Source: an uncultured Planctomycetaceae bacterium (GTDB taxonomy: Bacteria > Planctomycetota > Planctomycetia > Planctomycetales > Planctomycetaceae). Taken from it: 64,000 bases of DNA. The stretch is from positions 186,001-250,000 of the forward strand of contig CAXBME010000003.1 of assembly GCA_963976765.1 (NCBI GenBank). Reading direction: 5' to 3'. Made by a program: the position numbers and the translations under genes. This document shows, one piece after another, positions 5,589 to 15,747 of the stretch (position 1 is the first letter of the stretch; each line of letters begins with the position of its first letter). The notes below the pieces were generated by a model. The model was not told where the DNA came from and ran no database searches. It saw nothing but the letters and a program-made list of their open reading frames with translations.

Positions 5589-6569
5589 TCATGCTGAAGC
5601 ATTTTCTTTTCGGTCGCGATTCCCTGCGCGATCCTCGCGGGAAGACTTTTGATGATCAGTGTCCCGCAGCGAATTCAGGTTTTCATGGATCAACTCCACA
5701 AACCTGTTGGCTGCGTTACTGAGCCTTCGATTCCGCTTATGAATGATGCCGAGCGGCCTGAACCACTCGACGTTTGAAAGTTTGAGACTGACCAATGTGC
5801 CGGTCTCAACACTCCGCTTTACAGTTGCTTCTGGAAGCAACGCAACTCCGACGCCGTCTTCAACCGCTCGCCGGACCTGTTCCACGTTGTCGAATTCGTG
5901 AATCACGTTCGGGGAAACTCCCGCCTCACGCAGCCAACGATCGAGCTGATTTCTGACCCTCAGCTCAGACGTAAAGTTCACGAAGTCCTCATCCTGGATC
6001 GCCTCAATCGGTGCGGAATCGTACCCTTCGGATGCTCGTTTCGCCAGCGGATGGTCTGGATGGACAATCAGAGCGATTGGCTGCTCCTGCCAGGGAATCG
6101 TTGCGAATTCCGACGTATCTTCCGGAAAGGAGACGAGACCAATATCAGCACTTTCTGAACGAATTCGTTCGTAAACTTGATCCGGGTGAACATAGTCAAC
6201 CCGCAGTTCAACGTCCGGATAGGCATCTTCAAAATGATGAACGTACAAGTCCATCTGCAAAAGACCGACTGAGTAAATCGCGGCGACTCTGAGCCGGCCT
6301 GCGACGCTGCCTGCGAGTTGTCGGACCTCTGCCTCCAGCCTCTCGAATCCGGTCAGCAGTTCGCGACACCCGTCAAAATAATGCTGCCCGGCTGGTGTCA
6401 GAGCCAGTGGCCGGTGACTCCGGTCGATCAGTTCAATTCCGAGCTGCTTTTCGAGGTGTGCAACTGCCTGGCTGACGGTCGACTGGGACACTCCCTGCCG
6501 CTCCGCCGCTTTCGAAAAGTTGCGGCACTCTGCGACTTCGCAGAAGAGCTCGAAATTGCGAAACGACAT
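5589..6569 (-). CDS. LysR-family transcriptional regulator
   Basis: N-terminal LysR HTH (NFSKAAERQGVSQSTVSQAVAHLEKQLGIELIDR...LTPAG) plus substrate-binding domain; upstream of and co-oriented with gltB. Start placed at MSFRNF (alternative 6581). Confidence 0.95.
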   Translation of the reverse strand: MSFRNFELFCEVAECRNFSKAAERQGVSQSTVSQAVAHLEKQLGIELIDRSHRPLALTPAGQHYFDGCRELLTGFERLEAEVRQLAGSVAGRLRVAAIYSVGLLQMDLYVHHFEDAYPDVELRVDYVHPDQVYERIRSESADIGLVSFPEDTSEFATIPWQEQPIALIVHPDHPLAKRASEGYDSAPIEAIQDEDFVNFTSELRVRNQLDRWLREAGVSPNVIHEFDNVEQVRRAVEDGVGVALLPEATVKRSVETGTLVSLKLSNVEWFRPLGIIHKRNRRLSNAANRFVELIHENLNSLRDTDHQKSSREDRAGNRDRKENASA

Positions 6570-6888
6570 TGGCGAGAACAATATAAGAGAACGTTAATAT
6601 CAACCAGGCGATATATTGAAAAACTCAAATAACGATAAGCAGGCCCTGCTGGGCCGTCAAGTATGCACTGACTTCGTCAGGAAACGCGGCGACTTTGTGA
6701 ATGCTCGCCGGACTGAATTTTTCAATTGATTATTTTCAGTTTCGAGTGATGCCAAAGCTGAGTGTACAAAATTGTCAGACACTTGATTATTTGGAATTGT
6801 ATGTTCAGACTCGCCCTGCACTGCACATCGTCGCGAACCTGTGTCAGTGGTCAGAGTGGCTTGAATTGGATAGACGGGACTGCAATCA

Positions 6889-7224
6889 ATGCCGGATATC
6901 ATGATCGAGGTCTGGGATGCGACAGGCAACAAGCGCCAGCAGGTGGAAGTTCCCGTCGATTCTGAAGTGAACCGTGTGATCGCGGTTCTTGTTGACCGAA
7001 TGACGCTGCCGCGGCATAGCCCGGACGGCCAGATGATGAGTTACAAATTTCATCATAAGGCCAGTGGTCGACAGCTTCTCGACACGCAGACGCTCGCCGA
7101 CGCGGGTGTTTCGAACGGCGACATTCTCAGGTTACAACCGGAGATCACTGCGGGAGGGCATGTCCCTCTTCCTGCCAGAAATGCAGATTTGGGCTCAGCC
7201 AGCTCAGGTCGTCGTCATGTCTGA
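6889..7224 (+). CDS. Ubiquitin-like beta-grasp protein (YukD/EsaB-like) with G89-G90 and a 21-aa C-terminal extension
   Basis: Pattern ...SGRQLLDTQTLADAGVSNGDILRLQPEITAGG parallels ubiquitin's GKQLEDGRTLSDYNI...TLHLVLRLRGG; first gene of the cluster, directly upstream of the E1. Confidence 0.88.
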   Translation: MPDIMIEVWDATGNKRQQVEVPVDSEVNRVIAVLVDRMTLPRHSPDGQMMSYKFHHKASGRQLLDTQTLADAGVSNGDILRLQPEITAGGHVPLPARNADLGSASSGRRHV

Positions 7225-8404
7225 CATCATCCGGCTGACCGCCGAAGAAGAAGAAGAAGACGGGCGTTTCTCCCGCTTCGAACTGATCAGCTGGTGGGAT
7301 CAGGATCGTCTGTCGAATGCTCGTGTCGTCGTGATTGGCGCCGGCGCGTTGGGGAATGAGTTACTGAAGAATCTGGCTCTACTGGGAGTCGGGAACGTCT
7401 TCATCGCGGACCTCGATCGGATCGAAAAGTCGAATCTTTCCCGCTCGATTCTTTACCGCGAATCCGACTGCGGACGCATGAAAGCCGACGTTGCAGCGGA
7501 ACGAGCCAGCGAGATTTACTCCGGGCTTCGTACCCAGTCGTTCGTTGGCAACGTTGTGCATGACCTGGGACTTGGCCTGTACCGCTGGGCAGACGTGATT
7601 CTGGGCGGTCTCGATAATCGGGAAGCACGAGTATCGATCAACCAGTCCGCCGCTCGCGTTGGCAAAGTCTGGATTGACGGAGCGATTGAGCGGCTGGATG
7701 GCGTCGCCCGTGTTTTTGACGCAGCCACCGGGCCGTGTTACGAATGTACGATGAGCGATGTTGACTGGAAGATGCTCGAAGCTCGTCGGAGCTGCGCGCT
7801 GTTGACTCGCGAGGAAATGGATCAGGGCAAAGTCCCCACCACACCGACGACCGCGTCCGTCGTCGCCGGCATTCAGACTCAGGAAGCGGTCAAGCTGATT
7901 CACGGGATGCAGACGCTGAGCGGTCAGGGATTCGTATTCGACGGAATGTGGCATCAGAGTTACGTCGTCAACTATACGAAGCTCGACGACTGCCCGGCTC
8001 ACGAATCTTTCGACTCGGTGGAAGAACTGCCGCTGAAAGTTGCTGAAACGCGTGTCGGCGATTTTCTGGAACGCGCGCGGCGCGATGTCGGCCCGCAGGC
8101 GGTGATCGAGGTGAACAGCGACTTGCTGGAATCTCTGACCTGCACGTCGTGCGGCAGGACCGAGCCGATGCACAACTCGCTCGGAAAAGTTACGGAGTCC
8201 CAGGGACGCTGCCCCGGCTGCGGGGAGAACAGAACGCCCAACGTGTACCACACAATCGGCGATCAGACTGCACTTCTCGACTGCACACTGGCCGAGCTGG
8301 GTGTGCCACCGTGGGACATTCTGACCGGTCGCGAAGGACTCAAGCAGAAGCATTACGAATTCAGCGGCGATCGAGAACTGGTCCTGGGGGTGCTCGCACA
8401 TTAG
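7217..8404 (+). CDS. E1-like Ubl-activating enzyme (ThiF/MoeB/UBA family) with an extended C-terminus
   Basis: GAGALG nucleotide-binding loop, DLDRIEKSNLSRS, DVILGGLDNREAR, PCYEC zinc motif, putative catalytic Cys193 (RRSC), extra CTSC/CPGC zinc ribbon. Start reassigned to ATG 7217, overlapping the Ubl stop (ATGTCTGA). Confidence 0.93.
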   Translation: MSDIIRLTAEEEEEDGRFSRFELISWWDQDRLSNARVVVIGAGALGNELLKNLALLGVGNVFIADLDRIEKSNLSRSILYRESDCGRMKADVAAERASEIYSGLRTQSFVGNVVHDLGLGLYRWADVILGGLDNREARVSINQSAARVGKVWIDGAIERLDGVARVFDAATGPCYECTMSDVDWKMLEARRSCALLTREEMDQGKVPTTPTTASVVAGIQTQEAVKLIHGMQTLSGQGFVFDGMWHQSYVVNYTKLDDCPAHESFDSVEELPLKVAETRVGDFLERARRDVGPQAVIEVNSDLLESLTCTSCGRTEPMHNSLGKVTESQGRCPGCGENRTPNVYHTIGDQTALLDCTLAELGVPPWDILTGREGLKQKHYEFSGDRELVLGVLAH

Positions 8405-8495
8405 TCCGAACCCATTTACCGGCGAGGCTCAACCGGAACCACAACTTCAAAGAACGACAACACACAACAACGTCGTCATCAATGAAAGCAGGGCT

Positions 8496-9773
8496 ATGAC
8501 AAAACTCGACGTGACGCAGCTCACGAAGGAAAGTTTGTCGTCCGGATTATTTCCGGCCAGCATGGCGAGCGATTTTCGCCTGTTCTTCCAGCCGGAAGTT
8601 CATACGGAAATTCTCTCGCACGCCGGTGAGGATACGTCGTTCGAAATCTGCGGCATTCTGGTTGGCCGATGGGAGAACGACAGCAACGGTCCTTATGCCG
8701 TCATTTCGAATCGAATTCGCTGTGACAATGCCAGCAGCAAACTGGCCGAAGTGACGTTTACCCACGAATCGTGGGCTCAGATCAATCAGGAAATGGATAC
8801 GAAGTACAGCGATCTGAGAATCATCGGCTGGTACCACTCGCACCCCGACTTCGGCATCTTCCTGTCAGACAGAGATGTCTTCATTCAGGAGAACTTTTTC
8901 TCCGGAGCCGGACAGGTGGCGTTTGTTGTCGACCCGGTTCGGAAAACCGAAGGTGTCTTCGAGTGGCGTAATGGCAAACCCGAGCTGATGTCGCAGTATT
9001 GGGTCGGTAATTCGATCGTGCCTAAAGCTGCCAGCGGAGCCGATGGAATTGTTGCCGCTCGACCAGCTCGCGAGTCGAGAGCTTCGGAGACGCCCGCAGC
9101 AGTTTCACAATCGCATCAGCAGACCTCAGCGGCGCAGGAATCGTCGCTGAGTGTGATGACAACCGTGCTCGGCTGGAGCTGCCTGTTTCTGCTGGGGTAT
9201 TTGCTGGCTTCGCAGCGCAGCAGTTGGGAGCAAACAATGCTGCGCGATGGCGCCGTCGCTCATTACGGACTGTGGAATCTACTGAAGCCCGGATGGGAAG
9301 AGGAGCTGCTGGAAGCACGGTCGGATCTCGACAGCATCGTGAACGACCTGAAAACTCTTTCGGACGATCACGTCAGTTTGAGCGATGGCGACAAAAAAGA
9401 GCTGCGTAACAAGTGGTTGACTATTCGCAAAAAAGTGGCTGCCTCGCAGAAGACGCTTTCCAGCGTGGAAGCGCGCTACGGGCTCAGCAAAGAAGAAAAG
9501 CAGGTCGTCGCGCTGGTGATGTCGCAGAGGCTGGCGGAGATATCCGGTGTCGCTGATCCGGCATTACCGTCTCTTGACCCGCGACTTTCGACACCGCCGC
9601 CTCGATCTGTCGACGACAATAGTTCGAGCCAATCGACAACAAGACCGGCACCTTTAAAGCCGACAACGACGAAATCAGAGCCGGCGGCAAAAAACTTGTC
9701 TGAACGTCGATCGAAACCAGCGAGTCCGGAACCGGCCGGCCCCAAACCGCCGGGAGCGACAAATTCAGAGTAA
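8496..9773 (+). CDS. JAB/MPN+ (JAMM) metallo-isopeptidase with one TM helix, a helical region and a Pro/Ser-rich tail
   Basis: Catalytic Glu in FEICGILVG and complete JAMM motif GWYHSHPDFGIFLSDRD (HxH-x7-S-x2-D); hydrophobic segment VMTTVLGWSCLFLLGYLLA. Confidence 0.92.
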   Translation: MTKLDVTQLTKESLSSGLFPASMASDFRLFFQPEVHTEILSHAGEDTSFEICGILVGRWENDSNGPYAVISNRIRCDNASSKLAEVTFTHESWAQINQEMDTKYSDLRIIGWYHSHPDFGIFLSDRDVFIQENFFSGAGQVAFVVDPVRKTEGVFEWRNGKPELMSQYWVGNSIVPKAASGADGIVAARPARESRASETPAAVSQSHQQTSAAQESSLSVMTTVLGWSCLFLLGYLLASQRSSWEQTMLRDGAVAHYGLWNLLKPGWEEELLEARSDLDSIVNDLKTLSDDHVSLSDGDKKELRNKWLTIRKKVAASQKTLSSVEARYGLSKEEKQVVALVMSQRLAEISGVADPALPSLDPRLSTPPPRSVDDNSSSQSTTRPAPLKPTTTKSEPAAKNLSERRSKPASPEPAGPKPPGATNSE

Positions 9774-9860
9774 CAACATTCGAAACGGGCCTGTTTTATA
9801 TCGTCAGCAACTGGCTGGCCTTGGCATCGGGATTTCGCGGGTGACGAATCGGAGAATCCA

Positions 9861-10928
9861 GTGGCGGACGAAAAGCAAAGCTTGAAAATCACCGCAGCCG
9901 ATCTGCAGGCACCGGTTGTCGAGGAGTATCTCGAAACTCAATCGTGGTTGCAGAAGGATCTCGGCGACATTCAGGAACAGTCCTGGGTCGTGCGAGTTGT
10001 ATATGCCAACTGGTTTTACCTGGCCATCTGCAGTGCCATCGGAGGGATCATCGGCTGGGCGGTGATCGAACCGTTCTTCAGTGACGATCCACTGGTCGAA
10101 GACACCGCCGCCGCTCTGCTGATGTTTCCGGTTGTGGCCGGAAGTATCGGACTGTTTCTGGGAGCGGCGGAAGGGATCATGTGTCGAAACATCACCCGCG
10201 CCTGTGTCAGTGGTGGCGTTGGTCTGGCGGTCGGATTCGCCGGAGGACTGGTTGCCATCATCCCGACCGGGATCATTTTTTCGCTGATGACTGCGATCGC
10301 GTTCAACTTCTGGGAGAACCCCCAGGTGGACGAAATGCCAACCGGTTTTGCATTGCTTATTCTGATGATGGGGCGAGCTGCCGCCTGGTCGGTTGCCGCG
10401 ATTCCTGCCGGCATCGGTCAGGGCACTGCGCTGCGTGAGAAAAAAGTGGTTCTTAATGGCCTGATTGGTGGAGTGCTCGGCGGCCTGGTCGGCGGATTAT
10501 TGTTTGACCCGATCAGCCTCGTTCTGGTCACTGACTCCGGCGAAGCGGCCTACAGTCGTGCTGTCGGATTTGCAGTCATTGGCATGTCGGTCGGGTTGTT
10601 CGTCGGTCTTGTGGAAGGATGGACCCGCACGGCCTGGCTACTCATGAAGAAAGGACCGCTGGCCGGGAAGCAGTTCGTATTGTTCAAGGATGCCACGATT
10701 CTGGGGAGTTCACCCAAGGCCGAAATCTACCTTTTCAAAGACGACGCCATCGAGCCGAAGCACGCTGTGATTTACAACCGCGGAGGACGTTTTGAGATCG
10801 AAGATCAGAATACCCCCGACGGCCTCTACGTGAACGGCATTCCGGTCACCACGCAAATCCTGAAGAGTGGCGACCAGATCGTGCTCGGAAAAACGGTCCT
10901 GGAATTCACGCTGCGGGACACCGATTGA
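9861..10928 (+). CDS. Multi-pass membrane protein with a C-terminal FHA-fold domain
   Basis: About six Gly-rich hydrophobic segments followed by ...TILGSSPKAEIYL...EPKHAVI...IEDQNTPDGLYVNG...LKSGDQIVLG, the FHA pattern. Confidence 0.85.
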   Translation: MADEKQSLKITAADLQAPVVEEYLETQSWLQKDLGDIQEQSWVVRVVYANWFYLAICSAIGGIIGWAVIEPFFSDDPLVEDTAAALLMFPVVAGSIGLFLGAAEGIMCRNITRACVSGGVGLAVGFAGGLVAIIPTGIIFSLMTAIAFNFWENPQVDEMPTGFALLILMMGRAAAWSVAAIPAGIGQGTALREKKVVLNGLIGGVLGGLVGGLLFDPISLVLVTDSGEAAYSRAVGFAVIGMSVGLFVGLVEGWTRTAWLLMKKGPLAGKQFVLFKDATILGSSPKAEIYLFKDDAIEPKHAVIYNRGGRFEIEDQNTPDGLYVNGIPVTTQILKSGDQIVLGKTVLEFTLRDTD

Positions 10929-11057
10929 TGACGCACGCCTCACGCCGCCCGAACGGCATTGCGGTGTCGTTCAGACGAATGCCCGGCAACTCAAACAACG
11001 TTGAAGTCTTAATAATCTCTGATGCCTCACCAGTAGAACTCAAAGGAGCCTGCCCGG

Positions 11058-11606
11058 CCGATCAACGTAACGTGTAATTCCTGCGGAAAATCGCTCAAGG
11101 CCAAAGACTCGGCGGCGGGCAAGCGAGTGAAATGTCCCCAGTGTGGAGACCCGATCAGTATTCCGGATGCGGTTTACGACGCGGAAGAAGTCGGCGGAGG
11201 CGATGAATACTCAGACGACAATTATGGCGATGACTACGGAGATGGGCAGTACGACTACGATGTCTCCAGCGCTCCAGCGGCTGAAAACCGAAAGCCTTGT
11301 CCTGCCTGTGGCGAGATGATCGTCGACGGGGCGGTTAAATGTCGTTTCTGTGGTGAAATCTTTGATGCCGCGTTGAAAAAGAAATCGCGGAAGTCAAAGT
11401 CGGGCGGAGGCGGCGACGACGATGACATGACCACAGGCGACTGGGTTGTCGCGTGTCTGTGTGCAAATATTGGGTGTATTGCCGGCATCGTCTGGATGAT
11501 TCAGGGGAAACCTAAAGGCGTGAAGATGCTTGGCGTCTCGTTCGTCATGCAGTTTGTTTGGGGAGCGATTATCCAGGTCATCAAGATGGCTCAACAGGGA
11601 ATGTAG
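11058..11606 (+). CDS. Double zinc-ribbon membrane protein (start codon unresolved)
   Basis: Frame open from 11037: PINVTCNSCGKSLKAKDSAAGKRVKCPQC, acidic linker, CPAC...CRFC, C-terminal hydrophobic hairpin. The first canonical start (GTG 11127) falls inside the first zinc ribbon. Confidence 0.8.
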   Translation, partial: PINVTCNSCGKSLKAKDSAAGKRVKCPQCGDPISIPDAVYDAEEVGGGDEYSDDNYGDDYGDGQYDYDVSSAPAAENRKPCPACGEMIVDGAVKCRFCGEIFDAALKKKSRKSKSGGGGDDDDMTTGDWVVACLCANIGCIAGIVWMIQGKPKGVKMLGVSFVMQFVWGAIIQVIKMAQQGM

Positions 11607-11611
11607 TTCGC

Positions 11612-12316
11612 ATGGCCGAGTCCGTTGTTGATTGCGAATGCGGCGCCCGAGTCCGCTTGCGCGAGTCATCCCGGCGTCAGGTTCGCTGCCCGAAATGCAG
11701 TGGCGACCTGGCGTTGACTCGTGACGGTCGGGTTGTGCCGTCGTTCAAAGTGGCTACCGGCGAGTCGCAGCCGCTATGCCCCATTTGTCAGACAGGTGTC
11801 ACGGCTGAGGAACTGTGTGTCTCGTGTCCCGAGTGTGCTCAGACTCACCATCGCGAGTGCTGGTGGGAGATGGCCGGTTGCGGAACTTACGGTTGTAAAG
11901 AGGCGCCGGCGGTCGAGAAATCTGAGACCGCTGTCGACACTCCGCTGGCAGCGTGGGGTGATACCAAAAGCTGTCCTGCGTGCGGCGAAGAGATTAAGTC
12001 GATCGCTCTTCGATGCCGTTTCTGCAAAACCAACTTTGATACCGTGGATCCATTGACGGTAACGGATCTGCGGCGGCAGGCCGTTCGCGATGAGAAGGTC
12101 GACAAACTTCAAAAGTCTCTGGTCGCGACTTTCGTCGTCAGCCTGATCGGATGCCTGGCCCCGCTCATGTTGATTATCAGTTGTGTGCTGGTACTGCCAA
12201 ACCGGGATAGTCTGGCGAAATCCAGCCCGCTGTACTGGGTCATGGGTTATGCGTCGCTGGGGCTTTCGGCAATCTATACCGTGCTGATGCTCCTGTTTTT
12301 CCTTGCCGAGTTGTAA
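11612..12316 (+). CDS. Zinc ribbon + prokaryotic RING-like finger + zinc ribbon + 2 TM helices (candidate E3)
   Basis: CEC...CPKC; CPICQ-x11-CPEC-x3-HHRECW...GCGTYGC RING-like ligand pattern; CPAC...CRFC; two C-terminal hydrophobic helices. ATG 11612 lies 5 nt after the previous stop. Confidence 0.82.
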   Translation: MAESVVDCECGARVRLRESSRRQVRCPKCSGDLALTRDGRVVPSFKVATGESQPLCPICQTGVTAEELCVSCPECAQTHHRECWWEMAGCGTYGCKEAPAVEKSETAVDTPLAAWGDTKSCPACGEEIKSIALRCRFCKTNFDTVDPLTVTDLRRQAVRDEKVDKLQKSLVATFVVSLIGCLAPLMLIISCVLVLPNRDSLAKSSPLYWVMGYASLGLSAIYTVLMLLFFLAEL

Positions 12317-12394
12317 TCTCGGCGGGCAAAGTCTCAGCGTTAACGTCCTGCAACCTGTTCGTTTTCCATTATCTGTCTTCGAGGCACGCTTTCG

Positions 12395-13696
12395 ATGAAA
12401 CCGCCTGCTCACATTTCCGTCGCAGGTCTGCATGAATCGGGAGTGGTGTGTCCACACTGCAACCGCGAGATTGTGCGTGGTGAGAAAACCGTGCAATGTT
12501 CCGACTGTGGAGACGTTCAACACTGGTCGTGCTGGAATTCCGGCAACGGCTGCGGCTCGTACGATTGCAGCACCGGGTACGCAGGACATTCCTGTGATGA
12601 GAACGCCGAAGCTGTTTTAAGAATTACGAGTGACGAGGTCCGAAACGCAGTCCCCCTTGCTTCAGGAATTTCCGGGAGTTATCGCGGTCCGGCAATCTCG
12701 ATACCCGTCGGCCCCGGAGTCGAGTCAGACCGTTGGAACCGCCTGGCGATCGTGTCATTCGTCGTGGCGATACTTGGCATTCCGCTGTTCGGAATTGTCA
12801 CAGGTCTGGTTGCCGTTGTGCTGGGAGGGCTGGCGCTGGTGGGGAAACATTCTCTCAAGCGACGGGGAGCCGGGCTGGCCGCTGGCGGAATTCTGCTGGG
12901 CATAGCCGACTTTGCGGGGTGGTCGATTGTGTTGTTTCAGATGGGCGGCGCGCCTGGCGTGGGGCTTGCGCTGGACATCGACGAGTTCGAGCCTGACCCG
13001 GTCGCACTGGAAGCACTGCCCGACCACCTCAACCGCGCGATGATGGCCAACGTGCTGATTCAAGTTCAGCAGGGGATGGATAATCTCTGGGGCTCGGCAA
13101 TCGGTTCCGGAGTGATTCTTCGCATTGTTGATGGTTCGGCTCTGATCGTGACGAACCGTCATGTGGTCGATGCGAACTTTCCTGGCAGCAGTTCTGACGA
13201 AATTGCCGACTCCGGCAAAGGAGACACGTTACGGATCAAACTGGTCGGACAACCCAACGTGATCGGAAAAATTGTCTGGCTGGCTGGTGGCGGGATCGAC
13301 CTGGCGTTGATTCGAGCACCGGTGACATCCAACAAGGCGCTGACTGCCTGGTGGGACGCTACTCCGCGGGCTGCGGTGGGAGATCCCGTCTTCGCAGTCG
13401 GCAACCCGCACGGCCTTGGCTGGACGCTCACTCGTGGAGATGTTTCGCAACTTCGCCGACAGAACTATGGCGGTTCCACGCTTCGAGTCGTTCAAACCAG
13501 CGCCGCGATCAACCCCGGCAACAGCGGCGGAGGACTCTATGATGAAAGCGGCCACCTGATCGGCATCAACACATGGACTCGTGACAAGCGATTTGCGGAA
13601 GGGCTTGGATTTGCAATTTCTTTTCAGGAACTGCTGCCGCTGGTGCCCGACCATCTCGAACTGCCGGACAGCCAACTGGAGGACAACACGCCATGA
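12395..13696 (+). CDS. RING-like finger + DUF4190-like TM region + trypsin-like serine protease
   Basis: CPHC...CSDC...QHWSCW...GCGSYDC; hydrophobic LAIVSFVVAILG.../GLAAGGILLG...; protease motifs GSGV, VTNRHVV (His), IDLAL (Asp), AVGNP, INPGNSGG (Ser). Confidence 0.9.
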   Translation: MKPPAHISVAGLHESGVVCPHCNREIVRGEKTVQCSDCGDVQHWSCWNSGNGCGSYDCSTGYAGHSCDENAEAVLRITSDEVRNAVPLASGISGSYRGPAISIPVGPGVESDRWNRLAIVSFVVAILGIPLFGIVTGLVAVVLGGLALVGKHSLKRRGAGLAAGGILLGIADFAGWSIVLFQMGGAPGVGLALDIDEFEPDPVALEALPDHLNRAMMANVLIQVQQGMDNLWGSAIGSGVILRIVDGSALIVTNRHVVDANFPGSSSDEIADSGKGDTLRIKLVGQPNVIGKIVWLAGGGIDLALIRAPVTSNKALTAWWDATPRAAVGDPVFAVGNPHGLGWTLTRGDVSQLRRQNYGGSTLRVVQTSAAINPGNSGGGLYDESGHLIGINTWTRDKRFAEGLGFAISFQELLPLVPDHLELPDSQLEDNTP

Positions 13697-14541
13697 GCAC
13701 TGTTCGTTTGCGGAGACTGACCGCCGACTATGCACGTCTGAAGGAATACACAAAAAGTCATCCGCGGTTGAAGTTAATGCAGACCGACGGCGATCCGCCC
13801 GAGCGTTACCACATCGAGTACCGCATTCGCAGTCTGCGACAGGTCGATGGCGACATGCGGATTATCAAAAGCCACACCGTGGAGATTCTGCTGCCCAGAA
13901 ACTACCCGCGAACGCCGCCACAGTGCCGCATGTTGACTCCCGTGTTTCATCCGAACATCGCGCCACACGCGATCTGCGTCGGTGATCACTGGAGTCCTGG
14001 TGAATCACTCGAATCACTTGTGGGCCGGATCGGCGAGATGCTGGCGTACCAGAGTTACAACGTAAAAAGCCCGCTCAACGGCGAGGCCGCAAGGTGGGTT
14101 GTTGAGCACGAAGACGAGCTGCCGCTCGATCCGGTCAGCATGATTATCGACGAGTCTCGCCTGGAAGGCATGACTCCGGTAACCGTTCCCGTCGCATCAT
14201 CGGTTGAACTTCCAGAACCCTCGCCGCCTGCCGTTGACTCGGCGCCGCCATCTGAAACTTACAGCGTCAATTACGTGGAGCGGTTTTCGGGCGCGTCCTC
14301 AAACAATGCGCAGGCCGGAACAGCAACCAGCGTAGTTTCGAACCAAGGGGCCGCGCCGAAACGGAGTCACGCACCGCAGCAGGTTTCGTCTGAGGTCGAC
14401 AGGAAGCCAGAGACGCTGGTCGCTCAATGCCCCGCATGTCGCCGGAAATACCGGGTTCCGGTAACCGCCGCTGGTCGAAAAGCCAACTGTTCCGAATGCG
14501 ACAGCGTCTTCCAGATCCCGCCACTATCTGAACCGAACTAA
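13693..14541 (+). CDS. E2 ubiquitin-conjugating (UBC-fold) enzyme with a C-terminal zinc ribbon
   Basis: RLRRLTADY helix 1, PRNYPRTPP, VFHPNIAPHAIC (Cys95), WSP, SPLNGEAA; C-terminal CPAC...CSEC. ATGA overlap with the upstream gene. Confidence 0.93.
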   Translation: MSTVRLRRLTADYARLKEYTKSHPRLKLMQTDGDPPERYHIEYRIRSLRQVDGDMRIIKSHTVEILLPRNYPRTPPQCRMLTPVFHPNIAPHAICVGDHWSPGESLESLVGRIGEMLAYQSYNVKSPLNGEAARWVVEHEDELPLDPVSMIIDESRLEGMTPVTVPVASSVELPEPSPPAVDSAPPSETYSVNYVERFSGASSNNAQAGTATSVVSNQGAAPKRSHAPQQVSSEVDRKPETLVAQCPACRRKYRVPVTAAGRKANCSECDSVFQIPPLSEPN

Positions 14542-14981
14542 TGGAAGTCGACGAGCGAAGACTGCGGAAGCTACGCAATCACCATCGTGTGATGCTGGCA
14601 ATTTATGCGATGGTCATCGTCCTGATGTTTCTGCTGGAAGTCAGAAGCGACCAGCGCGTCGAGTTCCTCTTTCTCCCCGGAGTTCCTTTACCGGAAAGCT
14701 GCCTGAGTCGCGGCTGGTTCGAACTCGACTGCCCCGGCTGCGGGCTGACTCGCAGCTTCATCTACCTGGCGGCAGGCAGGATTGCGGATTCATGGTCGGC
14801 CAACCGCGTAGGCTGGCTACTGCTGCTGGCTGTGCTGCTCCAGTTTCCGTACCGAGCGATGGCTCTAAGGAATCTTGCTCATGGCTATGAGCAACCTTTT
14901 TCCAGATGGCACACGCCGTTCTCAGCCATCCTGATCGTTGCTTTGATCTCCAACTGGCTGCTGAAAATTTCCGGCCACTGA
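14541..14981 (+). CDS. DUF2752-like membrane protein
   Basis: PESCLSRGWFELDCPGCGLTRSF motif with three hydrophobic segments; TAATG stop/start overlap with the E2. Confidence 0.85.
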   Translation: MEVDERRLRKLRNHHRVMLAIYAMVIVLMFLLEVRSDQRVEFLFLPGVPLPESCLSRGWFELDCPGCGLTRSFIYLAAGRIADSWSANRVGWLLLLAVLLQFPYRAMALRNLAHGYEQPFSRWHTPFSAILIVALISNWLLKISGH

Positions 14982-15126
14982 TTCGTTGCCGCAGATGTCG
15001 TGCATTTGCGACGGCTGGAAAAACAGGAGACCACAAAGGAAGCAGAGTCTGCGAATGCGAACTCTGTTGGCTCAGCGATCTCCTGTTCGAATTCAGCCGG
15101 TCTCGGAACTCGATCAGGTTCAGCGA

Positions 15127-15747
15127 TCAGCGAAGTTCGTCGAGTTCGACTTCTTTTTCCTTCTTCTCATCGGCACCGAATGACTTCTTCAGAGCGACGG
15201 TCTGAGCAGCGACCGTCTTGTCCGGCCCGGTCATCTTGAAGAAGTAGATGCCTTTGTCTTCAATGCCGAGGATGACTCCCAGCATGCGTGATCCAGGAGT
15301 CGCTTTCGTTTGACGAGCGATCGGAGGGCCAACCGGCTTGTCGTAGGTCCCGGTGATTTCGACGAAAAAGTACCTGCCCGATTCGACTTCACCCTGCTTC
15401 ACGGTAACTTCGCGTTCGTCTGACTGAAATTGACCAACCCATCGGTCGATGTTGGCCTTCGCACTGCCGCCAGCTCCGAAGTTGAACAGTGCGAGTTCGC
15501 CGTCTTCCTCATCGCCTTTCACTTTTGGAATGGCGAATTGAGCGAGTCTCAGTCGGCTGCTCGGCTTACTTTGTTTCCAGGTCTCGGGCACGTTGAGTTT
15601 CAGCCCACCCTGAATTTCGACTTCAACGGTCTTGACCTCTTTGGCCGTGGCTTCGGGTTTATCCGTTGCCTTTTCGTCGGCCCGGACGACGAATGAAACC
15701 GCCAGCAGATTTGTCAGACAGATTAGCGAATAGATTCGTTTCGACAT
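15127..15747 (-). CDS. Hypothetical secreted protein
   Basis: Signal-peptide-like N-terminus (MSKRIYSLICLTNLLAVSFVVRA) with AAGGA RBS; motifs PETWKQ, LRLAQF, NIDRWVGQF. Confidence 0.75.
   Translation of the reverse strand: MSKRIYSLICLTNLLAVSFVVRADEKATDKPEATAKEVKTVEVEIQGGLKLNVPETWKQSKPSSRLRLAQFAIPKVKGDEEDGELALFNFGAGGSAKANIDRWVGQFQSDEREVTVKQGEVESGRYFFVEITGTYDKPVGPPIARQTKATPGSRMLGVILGIEDKGIYFFKMTGPDKTVAAQTVALKKSFGADEKKEKEVELDELR

Follow-up and report, generated by a model that had tools for sequence, protein, structure and literature searches.

The window analysed here is a stretch of 64,000 nucleotides (nt) from an uncultured planctomycete (contig CAXBME010000003.1, positions 186,001 to 250,000). 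Between positions 6889 and 14981 it carries nine plus-strand open reading frames (ORFs), all co-oriented, whose products include a ubiquitin-like protein (Ubl), homologues of ubiquitin-activating (E1) and ubiquitin-conjugating (E2) enzymes, a JAB peptidase and two proteins with RING-like fingers. The ORF analysis of the window and searches against Pfam gave the following genes:

6889..7224, + strand: Ubl precursor, 111 amino acids (aa); Pfam YukD, 38.6 bits (cut-off 27), 1.8e-9
7217..8404, + strand: E1, 395 aa, with a ThiF-type adenylation domain; Pfam ThiF, 1.1e-50
8496..9773, + strand: JAB/JAMM metallopeptidase; Pfam JAB, 3.1e-12, 46.8 bits
9861..10928, + strand: FHA membrane protein, polytopic, with about 6-7 hydrophobic segments and a C-terminal FHA-fold domain; Pfam FHA, 1.9e-11
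11127..11606, + strand: ZnR, a small protein with two zinc ribbons, an acidic linker and two C-terminal membrane segments; Pfam Zn_Ribbon_1, 1.2e-5
11612..12316, + strand: RING1, 234 aa; Prok-RING_1, 30.0 bits (cut-off 29.1)
12395..13696, + strand: RING-protease, 433 aa; Pfam Trypsin_2, 2.6e-21, with DUF4190 and Prok-RING_1, 28.4 bits
13693..14541, + strand: E2, 282 aa, with a classical UBC core; Pfam UQ_con, 3.2e-11, 43.5 bits (cut-off 27), and Zn_ribbon_4
14541..14981, + strand: DUF2752 membrane protein, 146 aa, with an invariant CPGCGLTR motif; Pfam DUF2752, 2e-14

Starts and stops overlap at three junctions, by 8 nt between Ubl and E1, by 4 nt between RING-protease and E2, and by 1 nt between E2 and DUF2752, where the DUF2752 start shares one base with the E2 stop codon. 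The remaining gaps, in operon order, measure 91, 87, 198, 5 and 78 nt, the ATG of RING1 at 11612 lying 5 nt past the preceding stop. A first-pass annotation of this DNA had described nine co-oriented genes with three overlaps at these places, and its coordinates match ours exactly. It had also placed transmembrane segments in six of the nine products, and hydropathy windows of at least 1.6 indeed occur in JAB, FHA, ZnR, RING1, RING-protease and DUF2752. Against NCBIfam, the operon proteins gave only sub-threshold, family-level matches. The gene content and its motifs support the prediction that this nine-gene planctomycete operon constitutes a complete, largely membrane-tethered Ubl-E1-E2-RING-JAB system.

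The operon is more than a chance assembly, since the same gene order recurs in many genomes. The orthologues that we aligned were drawn from 21 loci of the family (Pirellulaceae) and 16 loci of other families of the phylum. Eleven of the 21 family loci, spread over seven further genera, have all nine genes in the identical order, and five loci of four other families keep the order Ubl-E1-JAB-FHA-fingers-protease-E2. Split systems break into Ubl-E1-JAB-FHA, ZnR-RING1-RING-protease and E2-DUF2752, and the modules remain in the same genome. The components also occur together. Among 301 family genomes, E2 was found in 46 (at E <= 1e-30), Ubl in 44 and RING1 in 42; at least one of the three is held by 51 genomes and all three by 38 of these, counts to which we attach no statistic as related genomes are not independent. 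Exceptions to the three-way co-occurrence are five genomes of one genus that have only a cysteine-less E2, several fragmented metagenome-assembled genomes (MAGs) and two genomes without RING1. A synteny survey of the kind proposed in the first-pass annotation thus found the genes co-conserved. In three MAG copies (L055, L057 and L067) the frames of E1, JAB or RING1 are split, which may reflect sequencing errors or decay.

The Ubl consists of a single beta-grasp domain, a YukD-like core of residues 1-89 that ends ...EITAG89 and is followed by a non-conserved tail of 22 residues. Over 13 aligned orthologues the conserved end reads ...LRLQPEITAG with an invariant Gly89, and residue 90 varies, being Gly only in the window and one orthologue. 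The tails past Gly89 count 0-25 residues and are unrelated in sequence; two of the 13 orthologues end exactly at Gly89. Because residue 90 varies and these two orthologues stop after Gly89, the Gly-Gly of the window (G89 G90) appears incidental, and the mature Ubl most likely ends in Ala-Gly89. The conserved end is accordingly Ala-Gly and not the C-terminal Gly-Gly of the eukaryotic and Caldiarchaeum type. Among the motifs claimed earlier for the operon, the Ubl Gly-Gly as a conserved end has to be given up; the E1 GxGxxG with Cys193, the JAMM motif, the E2 HPN with Cys95 and the serine protease triad all stand. Identity of the Ubl amounts to 59-82% in 19 orthologues of the long operon type, with 73-82% between genera within the family and 59-74% in other families. 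A sequence search against solved structures returned only weak matches, to Caldiarchaeum ubiquitin-like proteins (E 0.3-0.9).

The enzymes at both ends of the presumed Ubl cycle resemble their eukaryotic and archaeal counterparts. In E1, all 11 intact orthologues keep the motif GAGALG (41-46), a CxxC at 174/177 and Cys193, and a C-terminal domain carries CxxC...CxxC at 309/312/332/335. Its closest solved relatives by sequence are the eukaryotic UBA7, UBA1, SAE2 and UBA3 (4e-23 to 4e-18), and the matches to solved ThiF (6e-16) and MoeB (1e-14) are weaker than these. The JAB protein comprises a peptidase domain (1-170), one membrane segment at about 218-238 and a C-terminal region, with low conservation beyond about residue 170. 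Its JAMM residues, E50 and H114-x-H116-x7-S124-x2-D127, are intact and invariant in the 13 orthologue rows aligned. The best solved relative is the Rpn11-like protein of Caldiarchaeum (6fjv, 2.4e-10), with eukaryotic Rpn11 next. Caldiarchaeum Rpn11 is reported to process its ubiquitin precursor (PMC6043591).

Three parts make up the E2: a UBC core, a linker that varies between orthologues and, at the C-terminus, a zinc ribbon of the MJ0042 type (C246 C249 C266 C269). The YPxxPP motif, HPN 86-88, Cys95, the WSP motif and the four zinc-ribbon cysteines are invariant in 25 sequences, and the best solved relatives by sequence are the eukaryotic Rad6/UBE2B, Ubc13 and Ubc9 (2e-7 and weaker). Of the 21 family loci with an E2, 15 have DUF2752 directly 3' of it, among them loci where the pair is detached from the rest of the system. 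Literature searches for 'DUF2752' found no paper.

Several further E2 loci deserve a separate description. At one locus (L054, 3061-5108) the E2 is followed not by DUF2752 but by a fusion of FHA with a PrsW intramembrane protease, a further link of the E2 family with a membrane protease. One genus of the same family (L068-L071, that is G375, G374, G379 and G380, and also G377) possesses a stand-alone E2 paralogue that keeps HPN and the C-terminal zinc ribbon and has its catalytic Cys replaced by Tyr or His, as in ubiquitin E2 variants (UEV-like). No Ubl was found in the two of these genomes that were searched directly, nor in the four that the family survey covered; at L069 a Peptidase_M50 gene stands just 5' of it. 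In two families (L100 and L110), the E2 match sits inside very long open frames of 758 and 1067 aa, in which Pfam gave no match past the UBC core. A scan of genome contigs with the E2 alone returned 22 loci, of which the sole true relative was L002, treated below. In the other 21 the similarity is limited to 20-60 residues at the E2 N-terminus and the remaining eight genes are all missing; in one of them, L017, it falls at the C-terminal end of an unrelated ORF. These 21 were left out of the counts.

RING1 combines an N-terminal zinc ribbon, a C4HC3 finger, a second zinc ribbon (C121 C124 C135 C138) and two membrane segments. In 19 sequences the finger ligands C56 C59 C72 C75 H80 C83 C90 C95 and Trp84 are invariant, as is the second zinc ribbon. 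The finger retains the CPIC motif, and its sixth ligand is followed by an invariant Trp; these positions touch E2s in canonical RINGs. A Prok-RING_1 finger on a membrane protein is found in RING1 and, just under the cut-off, in RING-protease, with ligands that are invariant or nearly so. The model of the RING1 finger has a mean predicted local distance difference test (pLDDT) score of 84.2. A VIA structural search with this model placed the EL5 RING-H2 domain first (Z 5.6, root-mean-square deviation 2.4 over 49 residues) and gave the HRD1 finger a Z of 4.7. Judged from their titles, RING or U-box domains of ubiquitin ligases (E3) account for about two thirds of the 50 best rows, and ZZ, PHD and C1 domains are also present. 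The predicted fold is that of a cross-brace treble-clef finger, consistent with a RING, and RING1 can be considered a putative E3. For a complex between the E2 UBC core (1-160) and the RING1 finger (46-106), predictions run without controls gave ipSAE values of 0.17 and 0.24, the mark being 0.32, and these speak neither for nor against an interaction.

An additional zinc-ribbon gene or RING1 paralogue was seen at L055 (6856-7958) and in genomes G244, G252, G255, G258 and G261; these extra copies indicate that, within the family, the membrane proteins with fingers and ribbons have undergone duplication. The position of ZnR within the operon is conserved in the family loci.

The second finger protein couples its C4HC3 finger (C19 C22 C35 C38 H43 C46 C53 C58) to a serine protease domain, whose triad H256 D302 S377 is invariant in 17 sequences. 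The model, with a mean pLDDT of 74.6, predicts three membrane helices, two short ones at 116-127 and 133-149 and a long one at 159-185. In Foldseek searches the protease domain matched DegS without its PDZ domain (2qf0_F) at E 8e-15 with a target TM-score of 0.77, and the matches to DegS, DegP and DegQ reach E of about 1e-14 with 30-35% identity over some 210-230 aligned positions. No PDZ domain was detected by Pfam, and the protein stops about 30 residues beyond the protease fold. The inter-helix loop KHSLKRRG is basic and the stretch past the last helix is acidic; by the positive-inside rule, the finger would therefore be cytoplasmic and the protease domain outside. The DegS-like domain thus most likely faces the periplasm, which fits poorly with a simple cytoplasmic tag-then-degrade scheme. 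With the finger inside and the protease outside, cytoplasmic tagging may be linked to periplasmic proteolysis, in either direction. The earlier proposal of a membrane Ubl system coupled to proteolysis is supported for the complete membrane-tethered set, and its link to proteolysis would have to be recast.

The FHA protein departs from the canonical members of its fold. Phospho-threonine is classically contacted in FHA domains by an Arg (GR), a Ser (SxxH) and an Asn (NG). Aligned with GarA and OdhI, the window protein shows GS for GR, ExxH for SxxH and DGL for NGT. When 23 FHA proteins of these operons were compared, Ser was found to replace the Arg in 22, and none had Ser or Asn at the positions where these residues are canonical; all 23 retain the neighbouring His. 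Given the loss of the canonical Arg, Ser and Asn, a classical role as phospho-threonine reader is unlikely for the operon FHA protein. The recognition of phospho-degrons by this domain was considered and dropped, the phospho-threonine-binding residues being absent from the window protein and its relatives. For the membrane part, a protein atlas search produced low-score leads only (<=0.82), which were hypothetical proteins or FHA membrane proteins.

The distribution of the system and the phylogeny of E1 offer a view on its history. Phylum-wide, a UBC core was found in 59 of 401 sampled genomes. The E1 tree was computed from 25 intact sequences, with two frameshifted copies and one fragment excluded. 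Genera and families are monophyletic and the tree follows taxonomy, with support of 100/100 for each of four same-genus pairs, 100/99 for f59, 100/100 for f23 and 100/99 for f74. Together with the losses in relatives and the ordinary chromosomal surroundings described below, this suggests that the operon is old and has been passed on mainly vertically within Planctomycetota, with frequent loss. Vertical inheritance with frequent loss would fit a dispensable cellular role in regulation or quality control better than a fast-moving defence island.

Upstream of the operon lie gltB and a gene for a LysR regulator, and the other neighbours, likewise ordinary housekeeping genes, include a symporter gene and nusA-infB-rbfA. 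Scans of positions 6400-15300 for promoters (3 promoter-like sites against 3.0 expected, none of them on the plus strand 5' of Ubl) and for terminators (14 terminator-like sites against 8.3 expected, mostly within genes) were not informative.

Two other arrangements of related genes were encountered in the phylum. A compact E1-Ubl-E2-JAB operon occurs in two other families (L103-L105, L107, L112 and L113), with proteins 30-42% identical to those of the window; in one of these families the E2 core was matched in 10 of 11 sampled genomes. No RING gene was seen among the few ORFs scanned on the flanks of the compact operon. In another family, a variant operon (L108, 7630-14952) encodes E1, a Prok-RING_1 protein, a YukD-like Ubl, E2, JAB, a VWA-Prok-RING_1 fusion protein, an FHA protein and a VWA protein, and a Cas12f/TnpB-like gene is located downstream of it.

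From homology, we consider it probable that the window operon encodes a membrane-anchored system of Ubl conjugation and deconjugation, eukaryote-like in having a classical E2 and RING fingers. In such a cycle, the Ubl would be made with a disposable tail, which the membrane-anchored Rpn11-like JAB peptidase would trim to expose Gly89. E1 would adenylate Gly89, load the Ubl on its Cys193 and hand it on to Cys95 of the soluble E2. The C4HC3 fingers of RING1 and RING-protease would draw the E2 to the inner face of the cytoplasmic membrane, where DUF2752 may assist its recruitment through the C-terminal zinc ribbon of the E2. The Ubl would then be moved onto lysines of membrane or membrane-proximal proteins, and the JAB peptidase could remove the mark again. 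The FHA-fold and zinc-ribbon proteins are most likely scaffold or adaptor subunits of the membrane complex. RING-protease would span the membrane with its finger inside and its DegS-like domain most likely outside. The operon is a further member of a computationally predicted kind, for which we infer from homology the dependence of conjugation on an E3, the substrates and the biological role. Among roles akin to endoplasmic-reticulum-associated degradation (ERAD), in signalling or in defence, we favour none outright.

A number of observations weigh against this reading. The Z-scores of the RING1 finger are at most 5.6, all below 8, and may reflect a mere common arrangement. Foldseek found nothing at E <= 0.001 for the isolated finger, its best rows being PHD and RING fingers, and at the scores obtained the fold is not separable from that of PHD or ZZ fingers. 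The finger of RING-protease falls just below the Prok-RING_1 cut-off, with 28.4 bits against 29.1. Membrane segments and topology are predictions from hydropathy and charge. YukD, the founding member of the family to which the Ubl belongs, is reported as not conjugated (PMC1779556). The system is absent from about 85% of the sampled genomes and from three congeners (L082 in G122, L083 in G121 and L085 in G120), in which the LysR gene and a gene for a 231-aa protein are adjacent with about 270 bp between them. By comparison with these congeners, about 8.4 kb (window 6570-15020) stands in place of about 150 bp, a presence or absence at one site. The absence from the three congeners and from most genomes implies that the system is not essential. 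Finally, in the closest relative, a MAG of the same genus (L002, 7460-9630), an internal deletion of about 3.1 kb joins the C-terminal region of JAB to RING-protease and removes FHA, ZnR, RING1 and the first two ligands of the second finger. This copy retains Ubl, E1, JAB, protease, E2 and DUF2752 at 73-91% identity, so that the RING proteins may be dispensable or the L002 copy may be decaying.

A more ambitious version of the preferred reading can be put forward only tentatively, as a possibility that we rate below an even chance. It holds that the products form a multi-subunit, membrane-embedded RING ligase, with FHA as a scaffold, ZnR, two finger proteins and DUF2752 as the E2 receptor. This ligase would tag membrane proteins in an E3-dependent manner, serving a cellular function that Planctomycetota inherit vertically and not phage defence, and would be coupled across the membrane to a periplasmic DegS-like protease.

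The rival that survives best is an anti-phage or 'selfish' conflict system of the kind of Bil and type II CBASS (cyclic-oligonucleotide-based antiphage signalling system), in which the Ubl would be attached to phage or host proteins at infection, with JAB as antagonist. Aravind and colleagues reportedly put forward a comparable view of mobile E1-E2-JAB operons, and operons of this sort have been proposed as mobile selfish elements (PMC3417536). The patchy spread (E2 in 59 of 401 genomes of the phylum and 46 of 301 of the family) and the presence or absence of 8.4 kb between congeners at one site would suit such elements, and the PADLOC models for E1-E2, BilD and JAB match E1 and JAB weakly. 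These matches, however, extend only over the adenylation and JAB cores, which are generic. No defence model was hit by the Ubl, FHA, DUF2752 or either RING protein. For the E2 there was a marginal hit to a generic E2 model (E 0.0069), and the weak hits of ZnR (E 0.0018) and of the protease are to unrelated models. The E1 tree tracks genus and family labels, and the Ubl, with 73-82% identity between genera of the family, is unlike a fast-evolving conflict gene. The surroundings point the same way, with gltB and LysR upstream and no integrase, transposase, phage or known defence gene among the 34 largest non-overlapping ORFs past position 15000. We therefore judge a defence function unlikely.

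Conjugation could also proceed without an E3, the C4HC3 proteins being substrates, anchors or PHD/ZZ-like peptide-binding modules that partner the membrane protease. Burroughs et al. 2011 reportedly argue that several prokaryotic treble-clef fingers act in protein processing as partners of membrane peptidases. Against the finger model, PHD and ZZ domains reach scores as high as those of RINGs, and L002 keeps the enzymes with no intact fingers. Bil, moreover, is described as needing E1 and E2 alone (PMC10557695). Several results speak for the RING nonetheless: of the 51 genomes with RING1, Ubl or E2, 38 have all three, the L108 variant operon again places two Prok-RING_1 proteins beside E1, Ubl, E2 and JAB, the finger conserves its CPIC motif and the Trp that follows the sixth ligand, and by title RING or U-box E3 domains make up some two thirds of the top 50 VIA rows. 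On this evidence, conjugation independent of an E3 seems quite improbable.

Far less probable is a non-covalent Ubl acting, like YukD, as an assembly factor of a membrane complex, with the E1, E2 and JAB homologues in other roles. Besides the YukD family membership of the Ubl and the unconjugated state reported for YukD itself (PMC1779556), this idea draws on the control that YukD is reported to exert on the assembly of the type VIIb secretion system (T7SSb; PMC12637312) and on the location of six of the nine operon proteins in the membrane. It is opposed by the invariant terminal Gly with its disposable tails, by the invariance of E1 Cys193 and of E2 HPN and Cys95 together with the intact JAMM site, and by the lack of type VII secretion genes nearby among the window ORFs scanned. 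A sulfur-carrier or cofactor pathway of the ThiS/MoaD-ThiF/MoeB kind is scarcely credible: E1 does match the ThiF and MoeB models of NCBIfam, yet all these scores are far below the curated cut-offs and E1 is nearer to eukaryotic E1s, and the operon contains E2, JAB and RING proteins and has no sulfurtransferase or biosynthetic genes.

The first-pass annotation had pointed out that operons with ubiquitin-like, E1, E2, RING and JAB genes were noted computationally in a few bacteria, including planctomycetes, and the literature proved this right (PMC4197634, PMC10557695). Actinobacteria, Planctomycetes and Acidobacteria are reported to carry operons related to that of Caldiarchaeum (PMC4197634), and E2 enzymes in Planctomycetes are attributed to Arcas et al. 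2013 (Antonie van Leeuwenhoek 104:509), as cited in PMC8382908. As they are described, the predicted operons of the Prok-RING_1 (PF14446) type share with the window a YukD-like Ubl, an E1 with a C-terminal extension, a classical E2, a JAB and membrane-anchored Prok-RING_1 fingers. Burroughs, Iyer and Aravind (Mol Biosyst 2011) are said to have predicted such bacterial Ubl-E1-E2-RING-JAB operons, including planctomycete ones. RING-containing bacterial operons of this kind were still termed uncharacterised in 2023 (PMC10557695). Our literature searches, whose coverage leaves out most subscription journals, found no experimental study of one.

The ubiquitin operon of Caldiarchaeum subterraneum (ubiquitin, E1, E2, a small RING and Rpn11) has the same five kinds of components and is reported as reconstituted in vitro (PMC5654768, PMC6043591). 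It encodes five soluble proteins, whereas the window operon encodes nine, six of them in the membrane, and adds to a YukD-like Ubl ending in Ala-Gly two RING proteins, an FHA-fold scaffold, a protease and DUF2752. With Bil and CBASS Cap2/Cap3 the window shares, as judged from its genes, the chemistry of E1 adenylation, E2 thioester and JAB within a bacterial operon. Bil is described as having an ISG15-like Ubl of two domains, an E2 of the CEHH type and a pseudodimeric E1, and as lacking an E3 (PMC11354881); the window differs in its single-domain Ubl, classical HPN E2 and RING fingers. Among the Bil models of PADLOC there was a partial match to BilD only (E1 residues 36-143, 1.5e-8) and none to BilA, BilB or BilC. 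In type II CBASS, E1 and E2 are fused in Cap2, which is encoded beside a CD-NTase; the window has a separate gene for each of the two enzymes, and no CD-NTase was detected in the operon by Pfam or among the other window ORFs scanned.

Analogies with eukaryotic membrane ligases are instructive. As in Hrd1 and Doa10/MARCH RING-CH proteins, the window operon would pair a soluble UBC E2 with a membrane protein whose RING-type finger is cytosolic, and its C4HC3 ligand pattern is that of RING-CH and PHD fingers. In contrast to ERAD, the operon has no retrotranslocation ATPase or proteasome and one finger is fused to a protease probably lying across the membrane; the likeness is one of analogy. DegS, which is anchored in the inner membrane, and the HtrA proteins have the fold and the triad of RING-protease, which differs from them by the lack of a PDZ domain, by its N-terminal, probably cytoplasmic C4HC3 finger and by a DUF4190-type membrane hairpin.

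To our knowledge, the bacterial Ubl conjugation systems studied at the bench (type II CBASS, Bil and Bub) all lack a RING E3, and the only reconstituted prokaryotic E1-E2-RING cascade comes from an uncultured archaeon. The operon type described here presents the full eukaryote-like set in the membrane, with an order conserved across several planctomycete families and several carriers with closed genomes. It makes testable in bacteria whether RING-dependent tagging works and what it serves for. The Ala-Gly end with disposable tails, the FHA fold without phospho-binding residues, the lasting E2-DUF2752 pair and the fusion of a finger, a membrane segment and a DegS-like protease provide additional experimental handles. 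Should the products indeed form a membrane-embedded RING ligase, planctomycetes would possess a bacterial counterpart of the eukaryotic ubiquitination of membrane proteins, of the ERAD or MARCH-like kind, and would offer a tractable model for the origin of E3-dependent ubiquitination.

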